Positions 2,412 through 51,354 of a stretch of 64,000 nucleotides of DNA are shown here, piece after piece (the stretch's first letter is position 1; every line of letters begins with the position of its first letter). The notes beneath the pieces are model-generated. The model worked only from the letters and a program-made list of their open reading frames with translations. It was not told the DNA's origin and searched no databases. A program made the translations under genes and the position numbers. Source of the stretch: an uncultured Actinomycetes bacterium (GTDB taxonomy: Bacteria; Actinomycetota; Thermoleophilia; Gaiellales; JAICJC01); the NCBI GenBank assembly GCA_963797175.1, contig CAWCOL010000005.1, positions 653,100 to 717,099 of the forward strand, in the 5' to 3' direction.

Positions 2412-2450
2412 GCCGGGGATTGTACGAGGTCGCTCGGCTTGGTCTCGGGG

Positions 2451-2924
2451 CTAGGCGCCCGGCTTGGCGGCCATCGCCACCACCACCAGCAGGAGCAGCA
2501 CCAGCTCGATGCGCGAGACCAGGAAGATGCGGTCGATCCGCCGCCGCGCCTCCGGGCTGGCCGGGCCGTCGGCGTCGATCACCTTCGCGATCCGTCCGGA
2601 CTCGGGTCCGAGGAACGCGGCGCCGGTGACGATCGAGATCGCGATCACGATCAGGCCGAACGTCAGCCAGCCCTCGGAGAGGCTCCAGTTGCCCTCGTGG
2701 ACGAGCCAGAAGCCGAACACGAGCAGCACCAGCGAGGACGGCAGGAACACGCGCATGCCGATCATCTCGACGTCCCGGGAGAAGCCGGCCAGCCGCGCCG
2801 GATCGGGGTCACGCGCGACCCGGATCGCCATCATCTGCACGGTGAACGCCCCGCCCACCCAGACGATCGCCGCCAGGATGTGGACGGTGAGCAGCCACTG
2901 GTAGGTGGTGGTGAGGAGCGCCAT
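2451..2924 (-). CDS. small integral membrane protein (DUF2269-like)
   Basis: This is the 157-aa tail of the 2451..4532 ORF, starting at ATG 2924 (MALLTTTYQWLLTVHILAAIVWVGG...). It has about four hydrophobic helices. The family name is recalled from the N-terminal W..HI..A..W.GG pattern only. Confidence 0.55.
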   Translation of the reverse strand: MALLTTTYQWLLTVHILAAIVWVGGAFTVQMMAIRVARDPDPARLAGFSRDVEMIGMRVFLPSSLVLLVFGFWLVHEGNWSLSEGWLTFGLIVIAISIVTGAAFLGPESGRIAKVIDADGPASPEARRRIDRIFLVSRIELVLLLLVVVAMAAKPGA

Positions 2925-3005
2925 CGGCGGCAGGTTGTACCGCACCGCCGGCGGCGGAGTCAAGCGTCCTCCACCGCCGGTTGCGGCCTTTGCGATACTC
3001 CGGCC

Positions 3006-21522: not shown

Positions 21523-21595
21523 TGGAGCTAACCGGGCTCGAACCGGTGACCTTCGCGCTGCCAGCGCGACGCTCTCCCAACTGAGCTATAGCCCC
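21523..21595 (-). tRNA. tRNA-Ala (anticodon GGC)
   Basis: The reverse complement GGGGCTATAGCTCAGTTGGGAGAGCGTCGCGCTGGCAGCGCGAAGGTCACCGGTTCGAGCCCGGTTAGCTCCA folds as a cloverleaf. It has the G3:U70 Ala identity pair and the anticodon loop CTGGCAG. CCA is not encoded. Confidence 0.9.
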
Positions 21596-32133: not shown

Positions 32134-32260
32134 CCGTTCGTGCAGATGCGCCCGCAGCCTCACCCGATACGACGCCGGTATCGCCACCAGGGCCAACCTG
32201 CCGCCCAGGGTACCCCAGAGCCCACCACAAGCGCCGCCTTGGCCGCTCGCCCGGCGAGCC

Positions 32261-32672
32261 CGCCACTTGTCGCTCCGGTGAATGACACTTGGCTTCCGTG
32301 ACAGCCACGCGACACCCTCGCCGACCCGCCGGAGCCAGGACTGGCCACGACCGATCCTGCTCGTCCTCCCAGGAGAAGGACGGGCAGGATCTCCCATGGT
32401 CGATCCCCGAGGAAGCAGCTACGGCGGGGCCCACCCTCCGCCGCCACCCTGCGCGCCACGTGTCGTTCCGGTCAATGACACTTGGATTTCGTGGCACCCG
32501 CGTGACACCACCGCCGACCCGCCACAGCCGGGACTGGCCGCGACCGATCCTGCTCGTCCTTCCAGGAGAGGACGGGCAGGATCTCTCATGGTCGACACCC
32601 GGGCAGCAACTACCGTCTGAATCCCTCACGCCGCCACTTGTCGTTCCGGTGAATGACATTTGGGATTCGTGA
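32261..32672. repeat. 2.3-copy tandem repeat (periods 193 and 178 bp) with conserved internal hairpin
   Basis: Units start at 32261, 32454 and 32632, each with cgccac(t/g)tgtcg(c/t)tccggt(g/c)aatgaca(c/t)ttgg. Each full unit carries gatcctgctcgtcct...aggacgggcaggatc (32353-32391 and 32546-32583). Confidence 0.75.
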
Positions 32673-32824
32673 CGGAGAGGAGAGGAAGGGCGCGGATCCC
32701 GTGAAGAAGCGCCCCATGGCGACTGCACTGCGGCCAAGGGCAGCGGGGACGGCGGCGGAAGGCGGATCACAGCCCTGACGGGTGGGGTGTTGAGCCGTGT
32801 GGGAGCCGATGGCAGGCTGTCGGT

Positions 32825-33316
32825 ATGTACCTGGCGACGCTGTACAAAGCGCGGAACGTGCCGGTGAAATCTCCGGTGTGCGCGATCTGCGTGGAGCGGA
32901 CGCGCGGCAAGACCGTCCGTCTCGATCTCGGCTATGGCGTGTCCGTCAACCTCTGCGCCGGCCACGCGGATCCCGAGTTCCAGGAACGACGGAACGGGCG
33001 CGACTTCGTCCTCACGCTGATGCGGCTGTGGCAGGCCCACGGCTGCATGACCGCCAACCGCCACAAAGCCCTCACCGCCCACGAAGCACGGCTACGGACA
33101 ACGAAGCCGAGCCGGCCGCTGCCTGGCTCCTACGCCTGGCCCGAGCTGCGACAGCGCGCGGAGCGCGCCTACGCCGCCGGGCACCACCCGACCGTTGTGG
33201 CAACGCGGTTACGCGAACAGCTGAGCGCCTGCCCGGCGCACCCACCCAGCCCGAGGACGTTCCAGCGGTGGCACGCGCAGCGGCGCTGGTCGCGGCCACC
33301 GCCCGTCGCCGCCTGA
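32825..33316 (+). CDS. hypothetical protein with CxxC...CxxH zinc-ribbon-like N-terminus
   Basis: 163-aa ORF MYLATLYKARNVPVKSPVCAICVERTRGKTVRLDLGYGVSVNLCAGHADPEF... It lies downstream of the tandem repeats. No family recognised. Confidence 0.5.
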   Translation: MYLATLYKARNVPVKSPVCAICVERTRGKTVRLDLGYGVSVNLCAGHADPEFQERRNGRDFVLTLMRLWQAHGCMTANRHKALTAHEARLRTTKPSRPLPGSYAWPELRQRAERAYAAGHHPTVVATRLREQLSACPAHPPSPRTFQRWHAQRRWSRPPPVAA

Positions 33317-33471
33317 GATCGGGCCGAGCAGTTCGAAGAGCGGCAGCTAGGGAACCGGACGCCGGATCGCCGCAGTACATCGAACGAACAGCAGCTACGG
33401 CAGAGGCACCGAACGACGGCGCTCCAGGGGACGCCGCGGTGGCGCGCTCTTGGCTGCTGCTCTTACGGCGC

Positions 33472-34434
33472 CTACCGCCACTCGCGGAATCGCTCCTTGA
33501 CGGAGTCGATGCCGTCGGTGCGGAAGCGCTCGACGAGATCCATGATCTCGATCCGCAAGCCCTCGGCGAGCGCGCGGACACGGGAGACGTCGGCGACCGC
33601 GCCGTGCTCGAAGTACTCGACGGCGGCCTGGCCGACGGCGCGGGTGCCGGCGTACGCGATCGCCGACTGCAGCGCCCACCCGGCGAACGGGACGAAGTCG
33701 AGCATCGAGCGGGCGACGGCGCGGAAACCGAACCCTGCGCCCAGCACGCCGAGCAGCTCGATCGCGCGCTGCTGGCCGATCTCCTCGCCGTAGCACGCGG
33801 CCAGCCGCAGCACGAGCCGCATCTGGGTCGCCGTCAGCACCGGCATGTCGGCGCCGGGGATGAAGATCAGCAGCGAAAGGCGGGCGTTGCGCCGCGCGGC
33901 GCGCTCGATCAGGAGCTCCGTCACCTGCGGGCGGAACGCGGGTAGCCCCGACGCCAGGTACGGCCCGGAGTCCCCCGCCCGGATGGCCAGCTCCTTCATC
34001 GCCCGGTCGAGCGGATAGCCGCTGCGCCGGTACGCCAGGATGTCGTCCGGGCTGACACCGCGGACGCGCGACGCCTCGGTGATCGCGTGGCTGGGCAGGT
34101 CGAGCGCCTCCAGCAGCGCCAGCACCGGGCGCTTCGCCGACCCCACCACCTCCAGATCCTTGCGCGTCAGGTCGTCGAGCCCGTTGAGGACGGTGCCTCC
34201 GTAGACCACAACAGCTGCCTTGGACAGCGCCTTGCGGTCGTCCTTCTCCAGGCGGCGGAGCGCGAACGCCTGGGCGAACGGGGCCGGGTCCGGCGCACCC
34301 GCGGCCAGCGCGACCCGCAGCGGATCGACGACGTCGCCGTTGCCGCAGATGACCAGCGGGCGATGCTCCATCGCCTTCTGGTTGTCGCGAACCACGGTGA
34401 ACGCGCTCTTGGCGGTGCTGAACGGGCTAGCCAT
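33472..34434 (-). CDS. DUF697-like domain protein
   Basis: 320-aa ORF. The C-terminal half, LLIFIPGADMPVLTATQMRLVLRLAACYGEE...GFGFRAVARSMLDFVPFAGWALQSAIAYAGTRAVG, resembles DUF697. Its start overlaps the rodA stop by 8 nt. Confidence 0.55.
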   Translation of the reverse strand: MASPFSTAKSAFTVVRDNQKAMEHRPLVICGNGDVVDPLRVALAAGAPDPAPFAQAFALRRLEKDDRKALSKAAVVVYGGTVLNGLDDLTRKDLEVVGSAKRPVLALLEALDLPSHAITEASRVRGVSPDDILAYRRSGYPLDRAMKELAIRAGDSGPYLASGLPAFRPQVTELLIERAARRNARLSLLIFIPGADMPVLTATQMRLVLRLAACYGEEIGQQRAIELLGVLGAGFGFRAVARSMLDFVPFAGWALQSAIAYAGTRAVGQAAVEYFEHGAVADVSRVRALAEGLRIEIMDLVERFRTDGIDSVKERFREWR

Positions 34435-35584
34435 AGCCGTATCCGTAGCCGAACTGCGTCGCCTCGTCGGGCTCGTCCGCGTGGACGTGGATCGACTGGA
34501 GGATCCCGATCGCGAGCAGGTTGGTGAGGGTGTGCGAACCGCCGTAGCTCATGAATGGCAGAGGAATGCCCGTGATCGGGGCGATCCCAATCGTCATTCC
34601 GATGTTGATGAAGACCTGGAACATCAGCATGCTCACCACGCCGGCCGCGACCAGGCTCCCGTAGGTCGATCGCGAGAAGGTGATCAGCTTGAGGCCGCGC
34701 CAGATCAGCAGCATGTAGAGCGCGATCAGCCAGGCGGCCCCGACGAACCCGCGCTCCTCCCCCACCACCGAGAACACGAAGTCCGTCGCGTGCTCGGGCA
34801 GGTAGTCGAGCCGCGTCTGCGTCGCGCCGTGCACGCCCTTGCCGGACACGCCGCCGGAGCCGATCGCGATCACGGACTGGTTGAGGTGGAAGCCGTTGCC
34901 CTGCAGGTCGGTGCGGTCGGGGTGCAGGAAGGCCGTCAGGCGGTCCTGCTGGTAGGGCTGGAGCACCTGCACACCCGCGCCGGGCAGGATCGAGAAGACC
35001 ATCGCGATGCCCACCGCGCCCGCCAGCCCCAGCCAGGCGAAGTGCCGCCACGGCGCGCCGAGCACGAACAGCACGCCCATCGTGATCGCGCCGTAGACCA
35101 GCGCCGTGCCGAAGTCGGGCTCGAGGAAGACGAGCAGCGCCGGCACCGCCATGTAGCCCAGCGCCATCAGCGTCAGCCGGTTGTCGCTGACCGAGCCGCG
35201 GTAGCGCACCAGCATCCCGGCCAGGCCGAGGATCAGCAGCAGCTTGCCGAACTCGGACGGCTGGAACTGGAAGAACCCGAGGTTGATCCAGCGCTGGCCG
35301 CCCTGCACCGACGAGCCGATCGCGAGCACGGCCACGTTGGCCAGCAGCACGAAGCCGTAGACCCACCAGCCCACCCGCCGGAAGACCCGCGGCGGGACCG
35401 CCGCCAGCACCAGCATGCCGATCGTCCCGACGACGACGTAGCCCAGCTCGCGGTCGAAGTAGTACGTCGGCCGGCCGGGGACGTCGTTGCGCGTCGCGTT
35501 CTCGATGATCCACAGGCCGAACGACGAGATGGCCAGCGTCGTCGCCAGCATCAGGTGGTCGAGGTGTCGGAGGTAATGGCGCAT
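34427..35584 (-). CDS. rodA: SEDS-family peptidoglycan polymerase RodA
   Basis: ATG at 35584 (MRHYLRHLDHLMLATTLAISSFGLWII...). Motifs FQPSEFGKLLLIL, TDFVFSVVGEERGF and GIPLPFMSYGGS. It follows mrdA. Confidence 0.9.
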   Translation of the reverse strand: MRHYLRHLDHLMLATTLAISSFGLWIIENATRNDVPGRPTYYFDRELGYVVVGTIGMLVLAAVPPRVFRRVGWWVYGFVLLANVAVLAIGSSVQGGQRWINLGFFQFQPSEFGKLLLILGLAGMLVRYRGSVSDNRLTLMALGYMAVPALLVFLEPDFGTALVYGAITMGVLFVLGAPWRHFAWLGLAGAVGIAMVFSILPGAGVQVLQPYQQDRLTAFLHPDRTDLQGNGFHLNQSVIAIGSGGVSGKGVHGATQTRLDYLPEHATDFVFSVVGEERGFVGAAWLIALYMLLIWRGLKLITFSRSTYGSLVAAGVVSMLMFQVFINIGMTIGIAPITGIPLPFMSYGGSHTLTNLLAIGILQSIHVHADEPDEATQFGYGYGYG

Positions 35585-37626
35585 CAGTGGGACTGGTCGG
35601 TGCCCTTCACCGTGGTCACCCGCTCGTTGGGATGGAAGTACGCCTGGAGCACCTCGCGCGCCGCCGGCGCCGCCGAGACGCCGCCGTGGCCGCCGTTCTC
35701 GATCAGGGCAACGACGACGATCTTGGGATCGTTGTACGGCGCCCAGCCCGCCCACCAGGCGTACGGGTCCTGGTTGATCTTGTCCGCCGTGCCGGTCTTG
35801 CCGGCGACCGCCGGCTGGAACGTGCCGAACACCGAGGTGGACGTGCCGTCCGAGGCGTGGGTGGCCTGGTAGAGGCCCTGGCGGATCTCGTCCACGAACG
35901 TCGGCGAGAGGTGCAGGTTGCGCTGCGGCCGCGGCTGGATCCGCTCCAGCACCCGATGGGTGACCGGGTCGGTGATGTCGCTGCCGACGTGCGGCGTGAC
36001 CAGCGAGCCGCCGTTGGCGAGCGAGCTGTACGCCGTCGCCAGCTGGAGCGGCGTGATCTGCAGGTCGCTCTGGCCGATCGCCATCGTGATGTCGTAGCCC
36101 GGCTGCCAGTCCTGGTCGATCGGGTTCGAGTACGTCTCCAGCCGCCACTGCTTGTCCGGCACGAGGCCGCTGGGCATGTACGTCCGGCCCAGGTCGATCG
36201 GCGACGGCGTGCCGAAGCCGAACCGGCGCAGCAGGATCGGGAAGTGGTCGCTGGTCGAGTTGCCGTAGCGGCGGTAGAACTCGTCGCCGAGCCGGTAGAA
36301 GAACGTGTCGCACGAGATCTCGAGCGCGCGCGGCAGGTCGACGTCGGCGCTGTAGGCCGGGTCCCAGTTGTGGAACACGGTCAGCGGGTCGCCCGGGTCG
36401 GAGAAGGTGGGCGAGCAGAGCCGGTTCGAGCCGGGGCCGATCAGCCCCTCCCACCAGGCGGCCGCGGCGGTGAACGGCTTGAACGTCGAGCCGGGCGCGA
36501 ACAGCCCCTGGAACGACTGGTCGACGAAGGCGCCGGAGCGGAGCGCCTGCTTCACCTGAGCCTGCGAGTTGTAGACGCGCGGGCTGTACGTGGGCACGGA
36601 GGCCATGGCGAGGATCGCGCCGGTCTTGGGGTTCATCGCCACCAGGGCGCCCTTGGCCGCGCTCGTCTCACCGTCGTGGTGGGCGACGTTGATGCCGTCG
36701 TAGATCGCCTTCTCGGCGGCCTGCTGGAGGCGGGCGTCGATCGTCAGCTGCAGCGTGCCGCCCATCTGCGGCTGGGCGACGAACACGGGCTGGCCGACGG
36801 CGTGGCCGCCGGCGTCGAAGCTCTGGTCGAGCTGCCCGGGCTGGCCGCGCAGCAGCCGGTCGTACGTGTACTCGACGCCGCCGTGGCCGACGGACGAGTC
36901 GTACGGCAGGCCCTTGAAGTTCGGGTCCTTGAGATCCTCGGCCTGGATCGTGCTGACGCGCCCCAGGATCGCGCCCATGCCGGGGAAGCTCGAGTACGAG
37001 CGCTTGTAGGTGCGCAGGAAGCGGACGCCCGGGAAGTGGTCGCGGCGCTCGAGCACGTACGCCAGCTGGGCATTCGTCACCGAGCCCAGGGTGACCGGCG
37101 GCCCCGCGTTGATCACGTACCGGGCGTGCCCGGGCCCGTTCAGAAGCGGCTGTTCGTAGGCCTTCCACAGCGCGTGCGGCGTCCGCTTCAGGATCGGTGC
37201 GAGGTCGGCCAGCTCCTGGCAGCGCGACTGGCGCGCCAGCTGGGAGCAGCGGGGCACGGCGCCGACCGGCATCGAGGACAGCAGCGACTCGCAGTGCGCC
37301 GCGGAGGCGCCCAGCGTCGAGCAGTCGAGCGTGCTGGAGATGGTCGAGGGGTCGACCTGGATCAGCGTCGTGGAGACGTTGTCCACCAGGACACGACCGC
37401 TGGAGTCGACGATCTGGCCGCGCTGCGGCGGGATGTCGATGGTGCGCACCTCGTTCTGGGTCGCCTGCGCGACGTAGTGGTCGGAGCGCAGCACCTGGAG
37501 CGCCCACAGGCGGAACAGCAGAACGCCGAACAGCACCGCCGCGACGACGGCGAACGTCGCCGCGCGGACGGCGAGCCGCGTGCCGTCATGCTCGGGCTCG
37601 CGCTTAGGCTGTGGCGGCTGCAGCAC
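35584..37626 (-). CDS. mrdA: penicillin-binding protein 2 (elongation transpeptidase)
   Basis: 680-aa ORF with an N-terminal TM helix and PPQRGQIVDSSGRVLV. The transpeptidase motifs are STFKPF, (S)xN and KTGTA. Confidence 0.9.
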   Translation of the reverse strand: MLQPPQPKREPEHDGTRLAVRAATFAVVAAVLFGVLLFRLWALQVLRSDHYVAQATQNEVRTIDIPPQRGQIVDSSGRVLVDNVSTTLIQVDPSTISSTLDCSTLGASAAHCESLLSSMPVGAVPRCSQLARQSRCQELADLAPILKRTPHALWKAYEQPLLNGPGHARYVINAGPPVTLGSVTNAQLAYVLERRDHFPGVRFLRTYKRSYSSFPGMGAILGRVSTIQAEDLKDPNFKGLPYDSSVGHGGVEYTYDRLLRGQPGQLDQSFDAGGHAVGQPVFVAQPQMGGTLQLTIDARLQQAAEKAIYDGINVAHHDGETSAAKGALVAMNPKTGAILAMASVPTYSPRVYNSQAQVKQALRSGAFVDQSFQGLFAPGSTFKPFTAAAAWWEGLIGPGSNRLCSPTFSDPGDPLTVFHNWDPAYSADVDLPRALEISCDTFFYRLGDEFYRRYGNSTSDHFPILLRRFGFGTPSPIDLGRTYMPSGLVPDKQWRLETYSNPIDQDWQPGYDITMAIGQSDLQITPLQLATAYSSLANGGSLVTPHVGSDITDPVTHRVLERIQPRPQRNLHLSPTFVDEIRQGLYQATHASDGTSTSVFGTFQPAVAGKTGTADKINQDPYAWWAGWAPYNDPKIVVVALIENGGHGGVSAAPAAREVLQAYFHPNERVTTVKGTDQSH

Positions 37627-38152
37627 GATCGATCCGGATCTTGACGGGGAACAGGCGCCGCAGCAGCGGCAGCAGGATGAGCGCGACCAGCGCGGTCTCG
37701 AGGATGGTGGGGATGACCACCTGCGTCAGCGCGAACGCCACCGGCGTGCCCTCGCCCAGCATCACCTGGAGGACGACCATGCCGATCTGCACCAGCGTCG
37801 CGCCGGCGATGACGTAGGCGAACTGGAGCAGCGGCGGCACGGCCGGGGGCGGCGCCGGCACCGGCCCGACCGCCTCGGCGGGCTCGACCCGCATCGCCAC
37901 CCACACGCCGACGCAGACGTAGAGCAGCGAGGAGAGCCCGATGTGCTGGGTGGACTGGGCGTCCAGCAGCACGCCGCCCAGGAACCCGGCCAGCGCGGCC
38001 GCGATCATCCCGCGGCGGATGGCCAGCACCACGACCAGCACCACCATCAGGTCGGGCGCAGCGCCGGTCGGCATCAGCTGCGGCATCATCGAGACCTGGA
38101 GGACGACCAGGAGCAGCGTCGCGACGACGATCTTGAACGGGTCGAGGATCAC
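37604..38152 (-). CDS. mreD: rod shape-determining protein MreD
   Basis: 182-aa polytopic ORF between mreC and mrdA. ...PDLMVVLVVVLAIRRG...GFLGGVLLD... Confidence 0.8.
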   Translation of the reverse strand: MILDPFKIVVATLLLVVLQVSMMPQLMPTGAAPDLMVVLVVVLAIRRGMIAAALAGFLGGVLLDAQSTQHIGLSSLLYVCVGVWVAMRVEPAEAVGPVPAPPPAVPPLLQFAYVIAGATLVQIGMVVLQVMLGEGTPVAFALTQVVIPTILETALVALILLPLLRRLFPVKIRIDRAAAATA

Positions 38153-39023
38153 TTCGTCCCCGGCTTCGCCTCGAGCACGAGCACGTCCGTCAGGTCGCTG
38201 AAGTCCACGAACGGCTTCACCTGGATCGTCTGGAACGTCTGGCCGTCGTCGATCGAGACGCTCGAGACGGTGCCGATCAGGATCCCGCGCGGGAACAGCG
38301 AGGTGAGGTTGGTGTTGCCGGCGTAGCCCGTGGTGACGATGACGTCGCCGTTTCTGACCGCCTCGCCCGGCGCGACGTTCTCGAGCGACAGCAGCCCGGC
38401 GTCGGACGGCAGCAGGATGCCCTTGGCGCTGCCGTCGTTGAGGCCGGCGGAGACGGCGCTCTCGCTGTCGGTGATGAGGCGGACGATGGCCGCCGAGCCC
38501 GTCACCGAGACGACACGGCCGACCAGCGCCCCGCCGTCGTTGTAGGGGCCGATCACCGGGTCGTTGATGTGGACGCCGTCCGCGCTGCCGCTGTTGATCG
38601 TGATCGTGCGGTGGTAGAGATTGGGCGACTGCGCGACCACGGCGGCGCCGATCGGCGTGTAGTCCGACGTCGTGTTGCTGTGCTTGTAGTCGAGCAGCTC
38701 TTGCAGCGTGGCAATCCTCTTCTGATCCTGTTCGGCCTTGAGCGCGTTGGCGCTGGCCCGACGCAGCTCGGCCTCGAGCTTGGTGTTTTCCTGACGGGCA
38801 TCAACCAGCCCGTCGTCCAGTTCCAGCCGTCAACGAAGGGCTGCGTGACGCGGTGCACCACGCCGGAAACGGGTGCCGTGATCGACAGCGCTGAGCGCTG
38901 GATCGACCCGATGACACCACCAGAGCCCTCCCGGAACGAGAGGGTCAGGAGCGTGAGCGAGGCCGCGAGAAGCAGGCCGACGATGACCCGCCGCCGGATG
39001 AGACGGTTGTTGCCGATCAGCAT
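38149..39023 (-). CDS. mreC: rod shape-determining protein MreC, reading frame broken once near 38808
   Basis: The N-terminus (MLIGNNRLIRRRVIVGLLLAASLTLLTLSF...FVDGWNWTTG) is in the 39023 frame. LVDARQENTKLEAELRRA...AVVAQSPNLYHRTITINSGSADGV is in the 38149..38640 frame. The junction ggctggtt looks one base short. Confidence 0.85.
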
Positions 39024-39091
39024 TTGCAGGCGGTTTGCTGGGGCGCAAGTCTACCCCATGGGGTCTTCGGACTTGGTTGGTCCAGGAAACC

Positions 39092-39907
39092 TCAGGAGAT
39101 GGTGCCGTTGATCGCCAGCACCAGCACGACCGTGCCCAGCACGACCCGGTAGGCGACGAAGATGCCCAGTCCGTGGCGCGTCAGATACCGCAGCAGGAAG
39201 GCGATCGAGGCGTAGCCGACGACGAACGCGAGCACCGTGGCGATCGCCGTGGGCACGGCGCCGGCGCCCCCCGCCTCGCCCACCTTGCGCAGCTCGAACA
39301 GGCCGGAGAGCACCACCGCCGGGATCGAGAGCAGGAAGCTGTAGCGGGCCGCTGCTGTGCGGTCGAGCCCGCGCCAGAGTCCGGCGCTGATGGTCGCGCC
39401 CGACCGCGAGACGCCGGGCACCAGGGCGAGCGCCTGGGCGAAGCCGATGACGACGCCGTCGGTGCGGTTGAGGTCGGGCAGGTGGCGCCGCAGCGAGGCG
39501 GTGCGGTCGGCCGCGAGCATGACCAGGCCGAAGACGATCAGGCTGGCGCCGATCAGCTTGAGGTTTCGGGCGCCGGTCTCGATCGAGTCCTTGAAGACGA
39601 ATCCGAAGATCGCGATCGGGATCGTGCCGAGGATGATGTACCAGCCCATCCGCGAGTCGAGCTCGGAGCGGGCGGCCGGGTCACGAAGGCCGCGCAGCCA
39701 GGCCAGGAAGATGCGCAGGATGTCGGCGCGGAAGTAGAGCAGCACCGCCGCCATCGTGCCCAGCTGGACGACCGCGGTGAACGCGGCGCCAGGGTCCTCC
39801 CAGCCCAGGAACGCAGGGACGATGCGCAGGTGCGCCGTGCTGGACACGGGCAGGAACTCGGTGAGGCCCTGGACGACCCCGAGGACGATCGCCTGAAACG
39901 CGGTCAA
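39092..39907 (-). CDS. uppP: undecaprenyl-diphosphate phosphatase
   Basis: 271-aa ORF MTAFQAIVLGVVQGLTEFLPVSSTAHL...SRSGATI... This is the canonical BacA/UppP motif set. Confidence 0.9.
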   Translation of the reverse strand: MTAFQAIVLGVVQGLTEFLPVSSTAHLRIVPAFLGWEDPGAAFTAVVQLGTMAAVLLYFRADILRIFLAWLRGLRDPAARSELDSRMGWYIILGTIPIAIFGFVFKDSIETGARNLKLIGASLIVFGLVMLAADRTASLRRHLPDLNRTDGVVIGFAQALALVPGVSRSGATISAGLWRGLDRTAAARYSFLLSIPAVVLSGLFELRKVGEAGGAGAVPTAIATVLAFVVGYASIAFLLRYLTRHGLGIFVAYRVVLGTVVLVLAINGTIS

Positions 39908-39943
39908 CGGCGGCGGTCGTCGGCGGGAGCGGCACTCACGGAT

Positions 39944-40630
39944 TCAAGCGTACATGGCGGACCGGGACTGTCCAGCCGCACGGATGTCGGCGAAGATGTC
40001 GATCAGCCCGTCCACGGTGGCGAGTGCGCTGGTGCCGACCAGCCGCTCGTGCCACGGCTCAAGCGGCAGCCGGTCGAGCGCCTCCGCCAGGTCGGCCCGG
40101 TGAGGGCCGTCGATCTCGGCGTGGCGCAGCAGGCAGCCGAACGCCGAGCGCGGATGCCCGGTGCGCTCGATCAGCGCCTCCACGGCCGGCGCCGACGGCG
40201 GGATCTCCATCACCGCCATGTGGCCGAGCAGCGCGACCGGATGGCCGCGGCGGATCCACTGGCGCTGGGCGCCCTTGAGGGCCGCGACGGCCGGCGACGG
40301 CACCCGGGTGAGCACGGCGTCGGCCGGTAGCCCCAGCGCCTCCAGATCGGTCAGTGCCCAGGCGTCGTGGCCGCGCTCCTCCTCGATGTGGCCGTCCAGG
40401 TAGACGGCCAGCCCGGCGGCGACCTCGTCCCCGCCCTCCGCGAGCTCCGCCGCCCGGTCGCGTGCGGCCGTCAGCTCGGGCACGGTCTCGCGCATCAGGT
40501 CGTGCAGCGTGGCCAGGTACTCCGGGTAGAGGGCGGCGGCGTCCGGGGCCTCCCAGACGGCCGCGCCCGCGCGGTCGAGCAGCGGCAGCGCGACGTCCAG
40601 CGTTCCCGCCAGGCGGGCCGACGCGGTCAC
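39944..40630 (-). CDS. heme-oxygenase-like (PqqC/TenA-fold) iron-dependent redox enzyme family protein
   Basis: The GTG at 40630 overlaps the radical SAM stop (GTGA). 228 aa, all-helical, with YLDGHIEEERGHDAWALTDLEALG and ...LLGHMAVMEI... ExxH-type motifs. The family assignment comes from motif memory. Confidence 0.55.
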   Translation of the reverse strand: MTASARLAGTLDVALPLLDRAGAAVWEAPDAAALYPEYLATLHDLMRETVPELTAARDRAAELAEGGDEVAAGLAVYLDGHIEEERGHDAWALTDLEALGLPADAVLTRVPSPAVAALKGAQRQWIRRGHPVALLGHMAVMEIPPSAPAVEALIERTGHPRSAFGCLLRHAEIDGPHRADLAEALDRLPLEPWHERLVGTSALATVDGLIDIFADIRAAGQSRSAMYA

Positions 40631-41589
40631 CGGGCACCCGCCGCGAGCTGCTCGGCCAGCGCGGCGACCGGCCGGCGCATGATCGCGCCCATCGCCGCGC
40701 CGGCCGGCTCGAGCGCGTGGCACGTCTCGCAGACGCCGTCACAGACCGGCGTGCCCGCCTCCTCGGCCAGCCACACCGGCCCGAACGCGCGGATCGCCCG
40801 CAGCGCGTCGCGCCGCTCGACCCGGCGGCGCACGGCGGGCCAGCCGTCCCGGCCCGCCTGCCCCAGCCGCAGGTGGGCCGGCACGGGGCCGTCCACGGTG
40901 CGCTGGGAGCAACAGGCCACGATCGTGCCGTCGAAGGCGACGACCGGCCAGGTGGCGAGGTCGCAGCCGCCGCCGGCCGGCGGGCCGTCCGTGCCCTCGG
41001 CCCACGCCGCCGCCCGGCCGACCGGCGCGAGCAGCGAGCCGAGCACCGGCACGCGCCCGCCGAACCGCGCGGCCAGCAGCTGCTCCACCCCGGCCGCCCA
41101 CGGGTCGTCCGCGCGGCCGCGGGTCAGCTGCACGCTGACGTCCATGCCCCACCCGGCGAGCCGGTCGAGCAGCCACACCACGTCCTCTACGGGCACCTCG
41201 GCCTGGTGCCACTCGTCCATGCTCACCGCAACGCCGTCTACCGCGCGCAGCGCTGCCTCGACCGTCTGCGGGATCCGCCGGCGCGCGGCGAACCACGCGC
41301 CCGTCGTCACCTCGGTGGCAACGCCGACGGCGCGGCAGCGATCGGCGATCGCCGCCACCAGCCGCGGCCGCAGCAGCGCCTCGCCGCCCGTCATCAGCAC
41401 GGCCGCGGGCCGGTCCTCCGCGCTGAAGCTGTCCACCAGGGCGAGGAACCGTTCCCCGCCGTGCTGCTCGGAGCGCATCGTCGAGCGGGTCGAGCAGTGC
41501 GCGCAGTGCAGCGGGCAGCGCCTGGTCAGGCTCAGATAGACGCCGGCCGCGGGCACCGACCGCAATGCCAGGAGGTCGGAGAGCCGCAC
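40627..41589 (-). CDS. radical SAM enzyme with Cys-rich SPASM/twitch-like C-terminal region
   Basis: 320-aa ORF. LSLTRRCPLHCAHCS (CxxxCxxC) is near the N-terminus. The C-terminal cysteines are GGGCD...IVACCSQ...PVCDGVCETCH. It starts 9 nt after the small ORF's stop. Confidence 0.85.
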   Translation of the reverse strand: MRLSDLLALRSVPAAGVYLSLTRRCPLHCAHCSTRSTMRSEQHGGERFLALVDSFSAEDRPAAVLMTGGEALLRPRLVAAIADRCRAVGVATEVTTGAWFAARRRIPQTVEAALRAVDGVAVSMDEWHQAEVPVEDVVWLLDRLAGWGMDVSVQLTRGRADDPWAAGVEQLLAARFGGRVPVLGSLLAPVGRAAAWAEGTDGPPAGGGCDLATWPVVAFDGTIVACCSQRTVDGPVPAHLRLGQAGRDGWPAVRRRVERRDALRAIRAFGPVWLAEEAGTPVCDGVCETCHALEPAGAAMGAIMRRPVAALAEQLAAGAR

Positions 41590-41598
41590 GACGCGTCC

Positions 41599-41817
41599 CT
41601 AGTACGACATGCGGCCGACGGCGTCGGTGACCGGCCGGAACTCGGCACCGCCGAGCACCTTGACCTTGTTGTTCATCGAGACGAGGGCCGCCACCTCGTG
41701 CCGGGAGAGGTGCTGCAGCAGCTGGTTCTGCTCCTCGGACAGCTCGTTGACGGGGAAGCCCTGTGCCTCCAGGTCGGCGATCGGGTCATACGGCGGGCGG
41801 GGGCGATCATCGGACAC
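41599..41817 (-). CDS. 72-aa candidate precursor/partner peptide of the radical SAM enzyme
   Basis: GTG at 41817 is preceded by GGAGG with 6-nt spacing. MSDDRPRPPYDPIADLEAQGFPVNELSEEQNQLLQHLSRHEVAALVSMNNKVKVLGGAEFRPVTDAVGRMSY has an acidic helical N-terminal part and a C-terminal ...GRMSY. Confidence 0.65.
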   Translation of the reverse strand: MSDDRPRPPYDPIADLEAQGFPVNELSEEQNQLLQHLSRHEVAALVSMNNKVKVLGGAEFRPVTDAVGRMSY

Positions 41818-41897
41818 GGCCTACCTCCGGAGTCGATGCGAGGTTCGTGAACCTATCAGATGCCTGGAAGGTCGCCGCGGCTGGATACACTCGCGAC

Positions 41898-44888
41898 ATG
41901 GCGGGGGCCGCGGAGCGACGCGTGGTGACGGTGCTGTTCGCCGACCTGGTCGGATCGACCGGTCTGGCGGAGCGGCTCGACGCAGAGGCGGTGCGGGCGC
42001 TGCTGGAGCAGTACTTCGCGCTGGCCGCGCGGGCGATCGAGGCCCACGGCGGGACGCTCGAGCGCCTGATCGGCGATGGCCTGCTGGCGGTGTTCGGGCT
42101 CGACCCGACGCACGAGGACGACGCGCTCCGGGCCGTCCGCGCAGGCCTCGAGCTGCGGGCCGCGCTGGAGGAACTCGAGCCCGAGGCGGAGGGCCGCTGG
42201 GGCGGGCCGCTGGGCGTGCGCATCGGCATCAACACCGGCGAGGTCGTGGTCGGCGAGACCGGCGAGGGCGTCCGCACCGTGATCGGCGACGCGGTCAACG
42301 TCGCCGCCCGGCTCGAGCAGGACGCGTTGCCCGGGCAGATCCTGATCGGGGCGGTGACGCAGGGCATGGTCGCCGCGTGGGCCGAGCTGGAGCCGCTCGA
42401 GCCGCTCGAGCTGCGCGGCAAGCGGGAGCCGGTGCCGGCCTGGTCGGTGGTGGCCGTGGACGATCCCACCGCACCGGCCGACCGTCCCCACGACGTGCCC
42501 CTGGCGGGCCGCGAGCGGGAGCTGGCGCTGTTGCTGGACGTGGTCGAGCGATGCACGGACGACCGCGCCGCGCACCTGGTCACGCTGCTCGGCCCGACCG
42601 GCATCGGCAAGTCGCGGCTGGTGCGCGAGTGCGTGGACCGGCTGGGCGACCGGGTGACGCCGGTGGTCGGCCGCTGCCTGCCCTACGGTGACGGCATCAC
42701 CTTCTGGCCGCTGAACGAGGTGGTCGGCCAGCTGTGCGCGGGCGGCGATCCCGGCGAGCTGCTGGGCGACGGCGGCGAGGCGGCCGCCGCGGCCTCGCTG
42801 ATCCGCGCCGCGACCGGCCGCGGCACGGCCGTCGGCGGCCTCGACGAGACGTTCTGGGCCGTGCGGCGGCTGTTCGAGGCGGCGGCCCGGCCGCGGCCGC
42901 TGGTCTGCGTGTTCGACGACGTCCAGTGGGCCGAGCCGACCATGCTCGACCTGATCGAGCACCTGGCGGACTGGATCGCGGACGCCCCGGTCACGCTGAT
43001 CTGCATCGCCCGCCCCGAGCTGCTGGAGCGCCGCACCGGCTGGGCTGGGGGCAAGCTGCGCGCGACGTCCGCGATGCTGGGGCCGCTCGACCCGCGGCAC
43101 TGCGACGAACTGGTCGACCGCTTCCTCAGCCAGATGGGCGGTTCCGCCGGCTCGCTGCCCGCCGAGACCCGCCGCGAGGTGTTGGAGGCGACCGAGGGCA
43201 ACCCGCTCTTCATCGAACACCTGCTGCGCGCCGTCGGCCCCGACGGCGCCGCCCCGGCCGAGATGCCGCCCACCGTGCAGTCGGCGATCGCGGCCCGCCT
43301 CGACGCGCTCTCGCCGGCCGAGCGGCGCGCATGCGAGCTGGGCGCGGTGATGGGCAAGGTGTTCGCGGCGTCGGCCATGGAGGCGCTGGACGACGAGGAC
43401 GCCGCCGAATCGCTCGGTGCGCTGGCCCCGCTTGTCCGTAAGGGCATCCTCCGCTCCTCTCCGGTTCACCTGGGCGACCGCGACGCCTACCGCTTCACCC
43501 ACCTGCTGATCCGCGACGTCACGTCGGCGCGGATGTCCAAGCAGCGGCGCGCCGAGCTCCACGAGCGCTTCGCCGGCTGGCTGCGCGGCCGGTCCGACCC
43601 GGCGCCCGACGCGCTGGTCGGCTACCACCTGGAGCAGACCGTGGTGCTCCGCCGCGCGATCGGCCTGGCCGGGCCCGAGCTGGACACCGTCGCCGTGGAC
43701 GCGGCGACGCTGCTGACCTCCTCGGCACGGCGCTCGGAGGCGATGTTCGACCTCCCGGCAGCGGTGCGCCAGCTGGAACGGGCCGAGCTGCTGCTGCGCT
43801 GCGACGAGCCGCGGCGGCTGGAGCTGCTGCCCGCGCTGGCCCGCACCCGGCACCGGTCGGGCGACCTGGCCGGCGCCGGCGCGGTGCTGGACGAGGCGAT
43901 CGTGGGCGCGGCCGCCTCGGGTGACCGCCGCACGGAGGCGCTGGCCGCGCTGGGGCGGGCGGTGACCCGGATCGACGCGCCCGGCGGGCGCGGCGAGCTG
44001 GCGCGAGCGGCCCAGCGGGCGGCCGACGTGTGCGAGGCGGCGGGCGACGGCCGCGGGCTGGCCCAGGCGTGGGCGCGGCTGGCGCTGGTGCGCCAGATGG
44101 AGGGCCGCTACGGCTCGGCGGCCGAGGCCCACGAGCGGGCGCTGGGGCACCTGTCGCCGGGCGAGCCGGAGCAGCTGCTGCTGGTCGGGAACCTCGCCCT
44201 CTGCCATGCCCTCGGGCCGCTGCCGGCCGCTCAGGCCCTGGCCCGGTGCGAGCGGCTGGAGGCCTCCTGCGAGGGCTCCTCGCCGATGACGGCGGCCCTC
44301 GTCGCCGGCCCGGCGGCGGTGCTGCGCGCCCACACCGGCGCGATCGCGGCGGCCCGAGCCCAGATCGAGCATGCGCGGCACCTGGCCGAGGACATCGGCG
44401 AGGCCGAGGCGGCCGGTCACATGCGGATGTTCAGCGGGATGATCGAGGAGCTGGCCGGCGACCTCGACGCCGCGTTCGCCCACCACCAGGCGGCGGCCGA
44501 GTGGCTGGAGCGGGCCCAGGACGACCCGGCCGAGGCGCTGGTCGGCATGAGCCGCTGCCTCACCCGCCAGGGCGACGCCATCCGCGGACGGGAGCTGGCC
44601 GAACGGTGCAGCGGCGCCGTTCCCGACGACCTCAACGTGCAGGTGCTGTGGCGCGTGGCGCTGTCACGAGCCGACGCCGCGCTGGGCGAGCCCGCCCGGG
44701 CCCGCTGCGCCGCCGAGCAGGCGGTCGAGCTGACCCGGCGGATGGAGTGCCCGGAGCTGCTGGCCGACGCGCTGCGGGCGCTGGGATCTGCCCTCGCCGC
44801 GGCCGGCGGCGACGGGAGCGTCCAGATGGGCGAGGCGCTGGCGGTGGACGAGCGCAAGGGGCTCGCCGTCCGCGTCGGCCTGACGAAG

Positions 44889-44897
<9 letters not shown>
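41898..44897 (+). CDS. class III adenylate/guanylate cyclase domain - AAA/NTPase - TPR-like large regulator (STAND-type)
   Basis: ATG at 41898 (MAGAAERRVVTVLFADLVGSTGLAERL...IGDGLLAVFG...GINTGEVVVGE...IGDAVNVAARLE), then the P-loop LLGPTGIGKSRLV and a long Ala/Leu-rich helical repeat region. 999 aa. Confidence 0.85.
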
Positions 44898-46616
<1,719 letters not shown>

Positions 46617-47702: not shown

Positions 47703-48831
47703 TCAGTCATTCAGGTCCTGGAGAAGATACAGGGAGCCGCAGACGACAACGGCTCCACGCGGCCCGGCGAGGGTGCGGGCGGCGTCCAGCGCCTCGTGCG
47801 GATCGGCCGTGGAGGCGCCCCCGGTGATCCGCTCCAGCTCGGCAACGGGCATCGCCCGGTCGCTCGACGTCTGCGTCGCGATGATGGTCGGGCAGACCGT
47901 CCGCAGCAGGGACACCATGTCCGAGACGTCCTTGTCGGCGAGCGCGGCGAACACCGCCACCGCGGGCCGGTCGCCGAGCAGCGCCGGCAGCTCGGAGACG
48001 AGCCGCGCCATCCCCGCCGGGTTGTGGGCGCCGTCCCAGACCTCGAGCGGCGAGCCGCGGCGGACCTCGAGCCGGCCGGGGATGTGCATGCGCTCGATCG
48101 GGGCCGGGGAGACCGGCCGGCCCAGCGCCGCCTCGACCGCCGCCCGGGCGACCGCGCGGTTCTGCTCCTGGTAGCTGCCGCCGACCGCGACCACCAGCGT
48201 GCGCGACGCCTGCGGCACGCGATTCTCCCAGCCCGGCTCGCCGAAGACGACGATGCCGTCCGCCGGGACGACGGCGAGCTTCTCGGCGGCGATCGCCTCG
48301 CGGGTGTCGCCCAGCAGGTCGACGTGCTCGAGCGTGACGTTGGTCAGCACCTGGACGCGCGAGCGGGGCAGCACGTTGGTGGCGTCCAGCCTGCCCCCCA
48401 GCCCCGCCTCGACGACCGCCCACTCGACGCCGGCCCGGGCGAAGGCGAGCAGCGCCGCGCCGGTCAGCGCCTCGAACTGCGTGACGCTCGTCGCCGACGC
48501 GTCACGCACCGCCAGCACCGCCTCCTCGTACGCCGTGGCGTCGATCGTCTCGCCGCCGATCCGGATCCGCTCGCGGAAGGTGGTGATGTGCGGCGACACG
48601 TACGACGCCGGTGGCGACCCCCTCGGCCTGGAGCAGCGCCTCGCAGAACCGCACGGTGGAGGACTTGCCGTTCGACCCGACCACGTGGATCGCGTCGAAC
48701 TCGCGCTCCGGGTTGCCCAGCCGGTCGAGCAGCGTGCGCATGCGGTCGAGCCCGAACCGCATCCCGAACAGGCTGAGCGAGGCGATGTACTGCTCGGCCG
48801 GCGTCGTCGCGTCGCTCACCGAGGGGCTCAC
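47703..48831 (-). CDS. folC: bifunctional folylpolyglutamate synthase/dihydrofolate synthase, reading frame broken once near 48603
   Basis: The GTG at 48831 overlaps the valS stop (GTGA). The N-terminus ...FGMRFGLDRMRTLLDRLGNPEREFDAIHVVGSNGKSSTV...GVATGV is in one frame. YVSPHITTFRERIRIGGE... to the end is in the 47703..48599 frame. The junction reads ggcgtcGtacgtg. Confidence 0.85.
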
Positions 48832-51354
48832 CCGCCGTCGAGCCGCCGCTCGAGCTCCGCCACCTCGGCGGCCCAGCGCTCGGCCTTGGCGCGCTCGGCC
48901 TCGACCAGCTGCGCCGGGGCGCGGCCGGTGAATCCCTCGTTCGCCAGCTTGGCGGCCGCCCGGTCGTGCTCGGTGCGGGCCGCGGCCAGGCGCCGTTCGA
49001 TCTCGGGCCGGTCGTCCACCAGGATCCGCGGCACCTCGGCCTCGCCGGTCACCTGCGCGCGGCGGATGCGGGCGAGCAGGCGGCGCAGCGTCATGTCCTG
49101 CGGCACCGCCACCGGCACATCGCCGGCCGCGGCCAGCCGCCGCACCTCGGTGACGAACGCCATCTCCTGCTCGACCCGCGCCTCCAGCGCCTCGTCGCGA
49201 TGCTCCGCGGCCGGCTCCGGGAACGGCGAGCACATCAGCAGCTCGCGCTCGCCGGGCAGGAACCGCCAGATCTCCTCGGTCACGAACGGCATCACCGGGT
49301 GCGCCAGCGCCACCGTCCGCTCCAGCACCCAGAGCAGGTTGGCCGACGCTGCGGCGGCAGCCTCGCCCCCGTCCGCCAGGCGCAGCTTGACCTCCTCCAG
49401 GTACCAGTCGCAGAGGTCGTTCCAGATGAACGCGTAGAGCTCCTTGACCGCGCCGGCGAAGTCGTAGCCGTCGATCAGCCGCAGCACGTCGGCGCTCGCC
49501 CCGGCCAGCCGGGAGAGGATCCAGCGGTCGGCGGGCTCGGCCTGCGACGGCTCCGGCACCACGCCGCCGTCGATCCCGAGCAGCGCGAACCGGGAGGCGT
49601 TCCACAGCTTGTTGGCGAGCTTGGAGCCCTCCTCGATCATGCCCTCGGCGAAGCGCACGTCCTGCGTCGAGCTCATCTTGAGCAGGCCGTAGCGCGTCCC
49701 GTCGGCGCCGTAGCGGTCGACCAGGTCGAGCGGGTTGACGCCCGTGCCCAGCGACTTGGACATGCGGCGGCCGTCCGCGCGCCTGGATGACCGAGTTGAT
49801 GACCACGTCGGTGAACGGGATCTCGCCGCAGAACTCGATGCCGAGCATCACCATCCGCGACACCCACAGGTTGATGATCTCGCGGGCCGTGACCAGCGCG
49901 TTGCCCGGGTAGAAGGCGCGCAGCCGCTCCGTCTGCTCGGGCCAGCCCAGCGTCGCGAACGGCCACAGGCCGGACGAGAACCACGTGTCCAGCACGTCCT
50001 CGTCGCGCACCAGCTCGACGGAGCCGCACGTCCCGCACGCGTCCGGCGTCGAGGTGCGCACGGTGACGTGGCCGTCGGGGCAGTACCAGACCGGGATCTG
50101 GTGCCCCCACCAGAGCTGCCGGGAGATGCACCAGGGGCGGATCTGCTCCATCCAGTGGAAGAACGTGCCGGCCTGGGACTCCGGGTGGAAGCGCACACGG
50201 CCGCTGCGCACGGCGTCGATCGCCGGCGCCGCCAGCTCCTGCATCTCGCAGAACCACTGGAGCGAGATCAGCGGCTCGATGCGGTCGCCGCTGCGGTCGC
50301 AGTGGCCCACCTCGTGCTCGTAGGGGTGCTCCTCCTTGAGCAGCCCGAGCTGGAAGAGCCGGTCGACCACGCCCTGCCGCGCGCCGGCGGCCGTCAGCCC
50401 CGCGAACTCGCCGGCGGCCTCGTTCATGCGGCCGTCGAAGCCGATCACGGACAGCTCCTCGAGCCCGTGCCGGCGGCCGATCTCGAAGTCGTTGGGGTCG
50501 TGGCCGGGCGTCACCTTGAGCGCGCCGGTGCCGAAGTCCATCTTCACGTACTCGTCGGCGATGATCGGCACCTCGCGATCGACGATCGGCACGATGGCGG
50601 TGCCGCCCACCAGGTGGCGGTAGCGCTCGTCGTCGGGGTGCACGGCCACGGCGGTGTCGGCCAGGATCGTCTCGGGCCGCACCGTCGCCACCACCAGGAA
50701 CTCGGTCGTGCCCGTGATCGGGTAGCGCACCTCGTAGAGCGTGTCGGCGGCGTGCTCGTAGCGCACCTCGAGGTCGGAGATCGCCGACGCACAGCTCGGG
50801 CACCAGTTGACGATCCGGTTGCCGCGGTAGATCCAGCCCTTCTCGTAGAGGCCGACGAACACCTCGGTCACGGCCCGCGCGTAGGCGTCGTCCATCGTGA
50901 ACCGCTCGTGGTCGTAGTCCATCGCGCAGCCGAGCCGCTTGAACTGCTGGATGATGGCCGCCCCGTACTGGCTCCGCCACTCCCACACCCGCTCGACGAA
51001 CGCCTCGCGGCCGAGGTCGTAGCGCGTGCTGCCGGCGGCGCGCAGCTGCTTCTCGACCACGTTCTGGGTGGCGATGCCGGCGTGGTCGGTGCCGCAGATC
51101 CAGAGCGTCTCGAAGCCCTGCATGCCGCGCAGCCGGATCAGCGCATCCTGGATCGTCCCGTTCAGCGCGTGGCCCATGTGCAGCTCACCCGTCACGTTGG
51201 GCGGCGGCACGGCGATCACGTACGGCGGCCGGTCCGACGCCGGGTCGGCCGAGAAGGCGTCGGCGGCCTCCCACGCGGCGAACACGCGCGCCTCCACGTC
51301 GCCCGGCTCGTAGCGGCTGCGGTCGTGCAGCTCCTGGGTGTCGGTGGAGGCCAT
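48828..51354 (-). CDS. valS: valine--tRNA ligase, reading frame broken once near 49776
   Basis: ATG at 51354 (MASTDTQELHDRSRYEPGDVEARV...PPPNVTGELHMGHAL...) runs to ...FTDVVINSVIQAR. DGRRMSKSLGTGVNP... through the C-terminal coiled coil continues in the 48828..49763 frame. The junction reads gcgcgcGgacggc. Confidence 0.9.

Follow-up and report, generated by a model that had tools for sequence, protein, structure and literature searches.

Why is mreB parted from the other genes of the mre cell-shape cluster in an uncultured bacterium of the class Thermoleophilia? The question is raised by a 64,000-nucleotide (nt) stretch of contig CAWCOL010000005.1 (assembly GCA_963797175.1, positions 653,100 to 717,099), hereafter the window, to which all positions refer unless another locus is named. 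Here mreB (44905-45930) and mreC (38149-39023) are both on the minus strand and 39024-44904, 5,881 nt, lies between them, in agreement with the initial annotation of this DNA (same strand, 5.9 kb apart). Five genes occupy this interval: uppP, a heme-oxygenase (HO)-like oxidase gene, a radical SAM gene, the gene for a 72-amino-acid (aa) peptide and, on the opposite strand, a gene for a cyclase/AAA_16 protein. Profile matches agree with the contents first read from the sequence, namely uppP, an oxygenase-like/radical SAM/peptide cassette and an opposite-strand cyclase-NTPase regulator. The four genes other than uppP are called the module below. The initial annotation had taken the whole interval for an insertion into a conserved operon; the comparisons described here indicate that it is inserted DNA relative to the class-wide state, old and tolerated.

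The class-wide state was taken from an MreB-based scan with one genome per species, which gave 80 Thermoleophilia loci (MreB identity 82-94%) onto which the window proteins were mapped. The run valS-folC-Zn ribbon-ndk-maf-mreB-mreC-mreD-pbp2-rodA was found almost everywhere. In the window mreB closes the first part of this run (valS-folC-Zn ribbon-ndk-maf-mreB), and this upstream synteny is kept in nearly all of the 80 loci. mreC directly follows mreB in 67 of 79 loci, so the expectation that the two genes normally adjoin is true for this class. Among the contiguous loci in which both gene ends could be placed, most have 5-40 nt between the two genes (at the most ~130 nt), including a Shine-Dalgarno sequence, and in some the genes overlap. 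Contiguity of mreB and mreC is taken to be the ancestral state because it prevails to this extent. In the window, MreB matches PF06723 (E 3.7e-150) and NF010539 (533 bits), and MreC matches PF04085 in its C-terminal barrel part (E 6.5e-38). Beyond the interval, mreC, mreD (37604-38152), pbp2 (mrdA, 35584-37626) and rodA (34427 to ~35584) form a contiguous cluster, all on the minus strand, whose neighbours overlap or lie no more than 14 nt apart across 34427-39023.

Extra DNA of 0.3-3.4 kb is present at the mreB-mreC junction in 12 of the 79 loci, with varying contents. Translations read by eye suggested that the cargo of L004, L016, L027, L031, L044, L050, L063 and L080 differs from that of the window: the probable types were a ~320-aa protein starting MNIEEVDARSA without an assigned family, an ArsR-type helix-turn-helix protein next to another small protein, and what may be a membrane transporter and its neighbouring regulator, while L050 has several open reading frames (ORFs) of unassigned identity between mreB and mreC. 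By the same reading, GNAT-like, ArsR/SRPBCC or MFS/TetR genes would occupy the junction in these other lineages. uppP is also among the contents of such inserts. No radical SAM, oxidase, peptide or cyclase gene was found at the junction in any of the 80 survey loci, and the insert in the window is the largest seen there. On these observations the mreB-mreC junction is a recurrent site of gene gain in Thermoleophilia.

Closer relatives were then compared within the clade of the window, a group of uncultured Thermoleophilia whose proteins in similar metagenome-assembled genomes (MAGs) are labelled 'Gaiellales bacterium' by NCBI. Radical SAM homologues located five loci from independent ENA and JGI assemblies (L082, L084, L098 and the partial L087 and L090), and in all five the gene order and orientation of the window are repeated at the same site: mreB, the opposite-strand cyclase gene, the peptide, radical SAM and oxidase genes, uppP or none, and mreC-mreD-pbp2-rodA. 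MreB in these module-bearing relatives is 97% identical to that of the window, the module proteins 41-56%, PBP2 52-55% and MreD 46-53%. The module proteins have thus diverged to an extent comparable with PBP2, MreC and MreD, the fastest of the flanking proteins.

A search with RodA, which is independent of the module, found L169, L170/L171 and L173. L169 is the closest relative (RodA 84% identical), but it stops short of the junction and is uninformative on the module. Exactly the four module genes are absent from L170/L171 (RodA 76%), which have mreB-uppP-mreC, and from L173 (RodA 74%), which has mreB, a uppP of another type, a small ORF and mreC. Not all close relatives therefore share the split arrangement of the window. 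In a blastn comparison with L170, homology extends exactly as far as the mreB stop codon (44905) and is found again from 39918, 11 nt upstream of uppP. The unit whose presence varies is therefore 39919-44904, 4,986 nt holding exactly the four module genes, in place of which L170, the nearest relative to reach the junction, has 87 nt. The pair L082 and L173 has equivalent boundaries, with 5,097 and 41 nt respectively. No significant remnant of a module gene was detected in the intergenic regions of the module-less loci; the only trace is ~19 nt after the L173 mreB stop that align with the 3' end of the L082 cyclase gene, too short to count.

A host tree was built by neighbour-joining from nine concatenated flanking proteins with 100 bootstraps. 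With module presence, absence and lack of information marked as +, - and ?, it reads (L098+, ((L170-, (L169?, window+))96, (L084+, (L090+, (L173-, L082+)100)100)100)98)100. The module-less L170 and L173 are thus nested among module-bearing loci with bootstrap values of 96-100%, and the sister group (L001, (L002, L003)) is module-less. The identities among module proteins group L082, L084 and L090 together, L098 with L087, and the window alone, broadly following the host tree. One gain followed by at least two losses is the most economical history. The comparison of synteny that the initial annotation had proposed accordingly gave a divided result: mreB and mreC are contiguous in most of the class and relatives without the module exist, yet five divergent relatives share the module at the same site, and hence it is old.

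uppP has a history separate from that of the module. The gene in the window (39092-39907, minus strand) encodes an undecaprenyl-diphosphate phosphatase of the BacA family (NF001392, 357.2 bits vs 308 over residues 1-270; PF02673, E 1e-83), here called type A. It lies outside the module, for it adjoins mreC in the module-less L170 (81% identical) as well as in L084 (79%), and the type A proteins of the window, L084 and L170 are 79-81% identical. Type B is found in L082, L090, L173, L002 and L003 (65-85% identity among themselves, 30-37% to type A) and is accompanied by a small opposite-strand ORF for a membrane protein. L001 has a third type (41% to type A), and L098 and L087 have no uppP in the slot. 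Three non-orthologous types thus occupy the same place across relatives (L001 11094-12062, L002 11061-11945, L003 11055-11936, L173 5220-6110, L090 2152-3075 and L082 11730-12970, each in its own coordinates), which suggests that uppP has been captured or exchanged more than once next to mreC. UppP recycles the lipid carrier that the elongasome uses, and repeated capture beside mreC fits this function. Of the original proposal, therefore, insertion relative to the class norm survives, given the contiguous majority and the relatives without the module, whereas the single 5.9-kb block does not: there are two units, and only 39919-44904 varies as the module.

A candidate promoter of mreC-mreD-pbp2-rodA is present near mreC. 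A -10-like hexamer, TAGACT, lies at 39048-39053 on the minus strand, 25-30 nt upstream of the mreC ATG. The clade of the window and the sister group together give 11 distinct loci, and every one has a box of the form TA[GC]A[ACT]T at -28 to -33 from the mreC ATG. The box is kept whether type A uppP, type B uppP with the small ORF, or the oxidase gene is upstream, and the surrounding sequence is not conserved. In the whole window the pattern has six matches on both strands, and it is missing from the loci in which mreB and mreC are tightly coupled. Scans for sigma-70 promoters and intrinsic terminators gave nothing above shuffle expectation. We infer that mreC-mreD-pbp2-rodA probably has its own promoter in this lineage. 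The mreB-mreC junction would then be an operon boundary, which would explain why insertions are tolerated there.

The composition of the module is not that of foreign DNA. Total GC content reaches 0.76-0.78 in the genes for the oxidase, the radical SAM enzyme and the cyclase, compared with 0.67-0.71 in the flanks. At third codon positions (GC3), however, module genes have 0.93-0.96 and the flanks 0.95-0.98, so the codon-usage comparison suggested at the outset does not mark the block as foreign. The surplus sits in codon positions 1 and 2, owing to amino-acid composition, and L082 and L084 show the same pattern. Higher GC alone was thus no sign of recent transfer here, which may serve as a warning for annotation. 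The initial annotation had seen no integrase, insertion sequence (IS) element or tRNA at the borders, and this was borne out by family assignment, Rfam and review of ARAGORN output. No integrase, transposase, recombinase or IS element is present in the interval: all five genes belong to other families and, as they fill it, there is no room for one. No tRNA lies at the borders, the sole Rfam tRNA in the window being at 21523-21595. ARAGORN also reported a 'tRNA-???' at 44052-44134, which was rejected because of its 2-nt anticodon, its position within the cyclase gene and its lack of Rfam support. Searches for direct or inverted repeats flanking the block gave only low-identity, GC-rich chance matches, and the search for plasmid carriage of the module gave a single match, to a non-mobilizable Streptomyces megaplasmid.

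One repeat does lie at the right junction. The perfect 14-bp tandem duplication noticed there originally is real in this sequence: Tandem Repeats Finder gives 2.1 copies of GCTCAGTAGGAGTA at 100% identity over 44889-44917, the longest perfect tandem duplication within the window. Read on the mreB strand, the junction is ...CGC TCC TAC TCC TAC TGA GC, then TACTCCTACTGAGC, then CTTCG. The first copy comprises the last mreB codons and the TGA stop; in the second, the opposite strand reads GCT CAG TAG, with which the cyclase gene closes (...KAQ and stop). The duplication turns a 7-nt convergent overlap into a 7-nt spacer and leaves both proteins unaltered. In L084 a single copy is present and the stop codons overlap by 7 nt (...TAC TGA GCG on one strand and GCT CAG TAG on the other, with a cyclase ending ...SAQ and stop). 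L082 has a 4-nt overlap, L098 a short unrelated spacer, and L170 no second copy. Because L084 shows the single-copy overlapping state and L170 has no second copy, the duplication is derived, private to the window sequence and younger than the module. It is no insertion scar, as it duplicates the segment in which the convergent stop codons overlap in L084 and does not flank the block; it is either a slippage-type event or an assembly artefact. No exact match to the window MreB is on record, and hence no second, independent sequence of the duplication junction. When the RNA of either strand was folded across the mreB/cyclase junction, no terminator hairpin emerged (z = -0.2 and -0.85). The MreB terminus encoded here has a feature common to the clade, a conserved basic, Tyr-rich tail past the actin fold (...RRRNGRR-S-Y-x-Y and stop; window 44905-44940, and L082, L084, L098, L170, L173 and L001-L003).

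These observations can be joined in one history. In an ancestor of the clade the junction would have stopped being intra-operon and become a slot for accessory genes. The module would have been acquired once at the base of the clade, directly past the mreB stop codon, inherited vertically until fully adapted to host codon usage, and cleanly deleted in at least two nested lineages. The mreB transcription unit would now end tail-to-tail against the cyclase gene, with the peptide-radical SAM-oxidase-uppP run co-directional with mreC, and mreC-mreD-pbp2-rodA would be driven by the conserved promoter just upstream of mreC, making insertions tolerable. A later slippage-type duplication of 14 bp would have separated the overlapping mreB and cyclase stop codons. 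Taken jointly, an old single gain of the module, vertical inheritance, at least two losses, a separate uppP slot, a promoter belonging to mreC and the later duplication make up the history that we regard as probable. If mreC does have its own promoter, the mre cell-shape cluster, usually seen as a fixed operon, can open and stably host unrelated cargo.

The quality of the sequence bears on some of this. As annotated, mreC has 875 nt, which is no multiple of three; a frameshift lies near 38802-38811 (context ACGACGGGCTGG) and the gene is otherwise intact. Further single frameshifts are found in maf (46347-46390), folC (48607-48620) and valS (49778-49780). All four genes have unbroken counterparts at other loci, L082 and L084 among them, and no frameshift occurs in the module genes over their 5 kb. 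As valS is essential, the frameshifts are most likely 1-nt sequencing or polishing errors of a long-read assembly rather than marks of pseudogenes, and they are a caveat for every small-scale feature described here. In L082, a long-read relative, valS and folC are called as a single 1,215-aa fusion (252-3899), probably through an indel error like those in the window.

Several points weigh against the history proposed above. There is an ascertainment bias, for it was the module that led to the five relatives bearing it, and the loci found through RodA are only L169, L170/L171 and L173. The tree was made by neighbour-joining from linked flanking genes that may themselves recombine, the mreC promoter is a motif only, and at least four 1-nt frameshifts in 13 kb make a sequencing or assembly origin of the 14-bp duplication possible. 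The uppP types cut across the host tree, with L084 carrying type A inside a type B subclade, and this conflict means that the region exchanges DNA. It is possible, then, that the module spread among related genomes by homologous recombination through its flanks (mreB on one side, uppP/mreC on the other), and that its patchiness reflects allele exchange. The indel boundaries, identical in two pairs of loci, would suit such exchange, as would the radical SAM proteins, for which L082 and L084 are 64% identical and L082 and L090 59%, yet RodA and PBP2 pair L082 with L090. The module proteins are nevertheless about as diverged as PBP2, MreC and MreD and group broadly like the host tree; nothing requires transfer, and we consider this explanation rather unlikely.

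The reading of the initial annotation, that a 5.9-kb genomic island was recently inserted by horizontal transfer into an mreBCD operon until then intact, gains something from the absence of the interval from all 80 species-representative loci, from a total GC that in the cyclase, radical SAM and oxidase genes exceeds that of the flanks by 5-8 points, and from the occurrence of both presence and absence among relatives. It is already largely refuted, and in our judgement very improbable, since the arrangement is shared by relatives so divergent in their module proteins, the module does not differ from its flanks in GC3, the variable unit does not include uppP, the sole plasmid match is non-mobilizable and neither an integrase or IS element nor a tRNA or flanking direct repeat is present. 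Variable presence among close relatives would also fit an anti-phage defence island, and a Pycsar-like cyclase with a viperin-like radical SAM enzyme might be proposed, for the cyclase domain matches the PADLOC PycC models (73 bits) and the radical SAM protein gives a weak pVip match (25 bits). These matches reflect generic domain homology, that of class III cyclases in the former case. No Pycsar effector, transmembrane or TIR, is adjacent, as the neighbouring peptide, radical SAM, oxidase and mreB genes match no PADLOC effector model. The best relatives of the radical SAM enzyme are the peptide-modifying YydG and PqqE, and its constant partners are a precursor-type peptide and an HO-like oxidase, joined elsewhere by an S8 peptidase, an MFS protein, YcaO/TfuA or SARP, a context typical of peptides that are made by the ribosome and modified after translation (RiPPs). 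A defence role is accordingly given slightly less credence even than a recent island. That the split is a chimeric join or other misassembly in an error-prone long-read MAG could be argued from the four frameshifts that, within 13 kb, disrupt genes which are essential or conserved, and from an odd 14-bp duplication exactly at one junction. With the same gene order in independent ENA, JGI and other assemblies (L082, L084, L098, L087 and L090), and with peptide, radical SAM and oxidase genes identical in a Logan contig, it is the explanation that we find hardest to credit.

The old, vertically inherited module preferred here has a recognisable make-up. The peptide gene (41599-41817, minus strand) encodes a 72-aa precursor-type peptide of the 'aroma-sacti' family (NF045560, 36.8 bits vs a cutoff of 30, E 3.5e-9). 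Its leader domain is conserved, and its C-terminus, ...VGRMSY, has the aromatic residue Tyr as its last. About 30 homologues upstream of radical SAM homologues, at loci with GC 0.37-0.76, share the leader and end in F, Y or W, save one that ends in L; the alignment and the family name together suggest that a C-terminal aromatic residue is the defining feature of the family. Nine nucleotides past the peptide stop starts the gene for the radical SAM enzyme (40627-41589, minus strand; PF04055, peptide-modifying type), which has a CX3CX2C motif (C25/C29/C32) and, in an alignment of homologues, further conserved Cys residues at 209, 226, 287 and 290. Among solved structures it comes nearest to YydG, a peptide epimerase (8ai6, E 8e-15), and next to PqqE. 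Its stop codon is overlapped by 4 nt by the start of the oxidase gene (39944-40630, minus strand), the product of which is a 228-aa HO-like 'iron-containing redox enzyme' (PF14518, E 6.5e-10) with 3dde (E 1.2e-15) and AetD (E 0.006) as its closest PDB entries. At least 90% of 39 homologues share residues H81, E84, E85, H88, E142, H170, D174 and H177, consistent with a diiron-type ligand set. All three genes are reproduced exactly in the Logan contig. One contig was left out of the comparisons: L081 (ENA ERZ23872293 NODE_34702, 2,082 nt, 2.7x coverage) is 99.8% identical to 40833-41658, the peptide 3' end and radical SAM residues 1-254, and then continues in frame into unrelated, MFS_1-matching sequence to give a 484-aa 'fusion'; it is probably a chimera or a rearranged or unresolved variant from a near-identical strain.

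On the plus strand, ~41898-44897 encodes a 1,000-aa protein with a class III nucleotidyl cyclase domain (PF00211, E 1.6e-20), an AAA_16 (STAND-type) NTPase domain (PF13191, E 3.7e-21) and a helical/TPR-like C-terminal region. The class III catalytic motifs FADLVGST, IGDG and GDAVNVAARLE are present in its translation, the match to TIGR03903 is partial (149 bits vs a cutoff of 706), and domain searches of the protein detected no DNA-binding domain. The gene is convergent with mreB and divergent from the peptide gene, from which it is separated by 80 nt (41818-41897). This region contains a TAGGTT -10-like hexamer and a GGAGG Shine-Dalgarno sequence before the peptide start and presumably holds the promoters of both genes, although a scan with promoter consensus sequences gave no match in it. 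Radical SAM and PF14518 oxidase genes are paired in most of 80 metagenome loci, and cyclase/AAA_16 genes of this type adjoin module genes in Streptomyces and in L130, L132, L137, L139, L159-L161, L164 and L168. The four module genes also occur together elsewhere, often tightly coupled and accompanied by genes for an S8 peptidase, a GAF protein or an MFS transporter, and one further metagenome locus adds YcaO/TfuA and ABC exporters. From family resemblance the cyclase/NTPase may be an associated signalling component of the module.

By analogy with the mycofactocin and PQQ pathways described below, the peptide is probably modified at its C-terminal aromatic residue, first by the radical SAM enzyme and then by the diiron oxidase. 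Literature searches on 'aroma-sacti', on PF14518 with radical SAM and on HO-like/radical SAM RiPPs returned no relevant paper or experiment. The clean natural series of presence and absence in this clade is a handle on what this widespread, uncharacterised module makes, and the embedded module is a more interesting object than the split itself. Since it has long been kept between mreB and mreC, pointing toward mreC-mreD-pbp2-rodA and next to uppP, a link with cell shape may be imagined, in which the peptide modified by the radical SAM and diiron enzymes, or a small aromatic molecule released from its C-terminus, with the cyclase/NTPase as sensor, tunes elongasome expression or the supply of cell-wall precursors. 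This is a long shot; if true, a peptide-derived signal would be wired into the control of cell shape, and the module would not be a passenger natural-product cluster.

The flanks on the far side of the cluster may be described briefly. RodA of the window ends in ...FGYGYGYG. In L082, L084, L170 and L173 the genes 3' of rodA are conserved, encoding a DUF697-like protein, a Radical_SAM_N2-type radical SAM protein, DUF2344, RNase E/G, L21, L27 and Obg; in the window the counterpart of this region is ~31300-34434, with a DUF697-like ORF at 33472-34434.

The locus as a whole can be set beside the canonical mre cluster, such as mreB-mreC-mreD-pbp2-rodA of Streptomyces coelicolor (SCO2611-2607), downstream of valS-folC-ndk, and that of the 67 contiguous Thermoleophilia loci. 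The gene order and orientation are identical, including the upstream valS-folC-ndk-(maf)-mreB, but in the window mreB and mreC are 5.9 kb apart, the stop codon of mreB borders on a convergent gene, and a conserved -10-like box belonging to mreC replaces the short coupled spacer. The case adds one more to the known instances of a conserved gene cluster that carries cargo specific to a lineage.

The module enzymes have partial counterparts among characterised ones. YydG (PDB 8ai1-8ai6) is the best solved relative of the radical SAM enzyme, the similarity extending over ~220 residues, and its family model TIGR04078 is the best NCBIfam match; at 41.9 bits, however, this is far below the cutoff of 300, and the substrate peptide is unrelated. 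The oxidase shares with the HO-like diiron oxidases 3dde and AetD the PF14518 fold, the motif H-x2-EE-x2-H-x-W-L-x-DL-x-x-LG and the full His/Glu/Asp set. 3dde is a structure of unassigned function and AetD is a nitrile synthase acting on a tryptophan derivative; the similarity to AetD is marginal, covering 38 residues, and the substrate in the window is presumably a peptide-bound residue. At the level of the pathway, mycofactocin and pyrroloquinoline quinone (PQQ) come to mind. For mycofactocin, the radical SAM enzyme MftC processes MftA, a precursor whose last residue is Tyr; the PQQ pathway has PqqA, the radical SAM enzyme PqqE and the HO-fold PqqC. A small precursor with a critical aromatic residue at or near its C-terminus, a radical SAM enzyme and an HO-fold oxidase are common to these systems and the module. 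The window differs in lacking a RiPP recognition element (RRE)/PqqD-type chaperone, a SPASM match above cutoff and a match to any Mft or Pqq family hidden Markov model, and the resemblance is one of mode of working, not of family membership.

A likeness to the module as a whole is seen in the aroma-sacti clusters that NCBI annotates in Streptomyces, where the run comprises radical SAM, redox enzyme, aroma-sacti peptide, cyclase, S8 peptidase and GAF genes, sometimes with an MFS exporter, and a SARP regulator is near. In NZ_CP108138.1 (OG778_RS33810-33785) homologues of all four module genes are present (radical SAM 42%, oxidase 42% and cyclase 37% identical), and the peptide shares the NF045560 leader and the C-terminal aromatic residue with that of the window. 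The window is without S8 peptidase, GAF and transporter genes, tblastn with the Streptomyces S8 peptidase and GAF proteins finding neither, and its cyclase gene is inverted. The Streptomyces genes, moreover, are in a secondary-metabolite neighbourhood, whereas the module of the window is housed inside a cell-shape locus.

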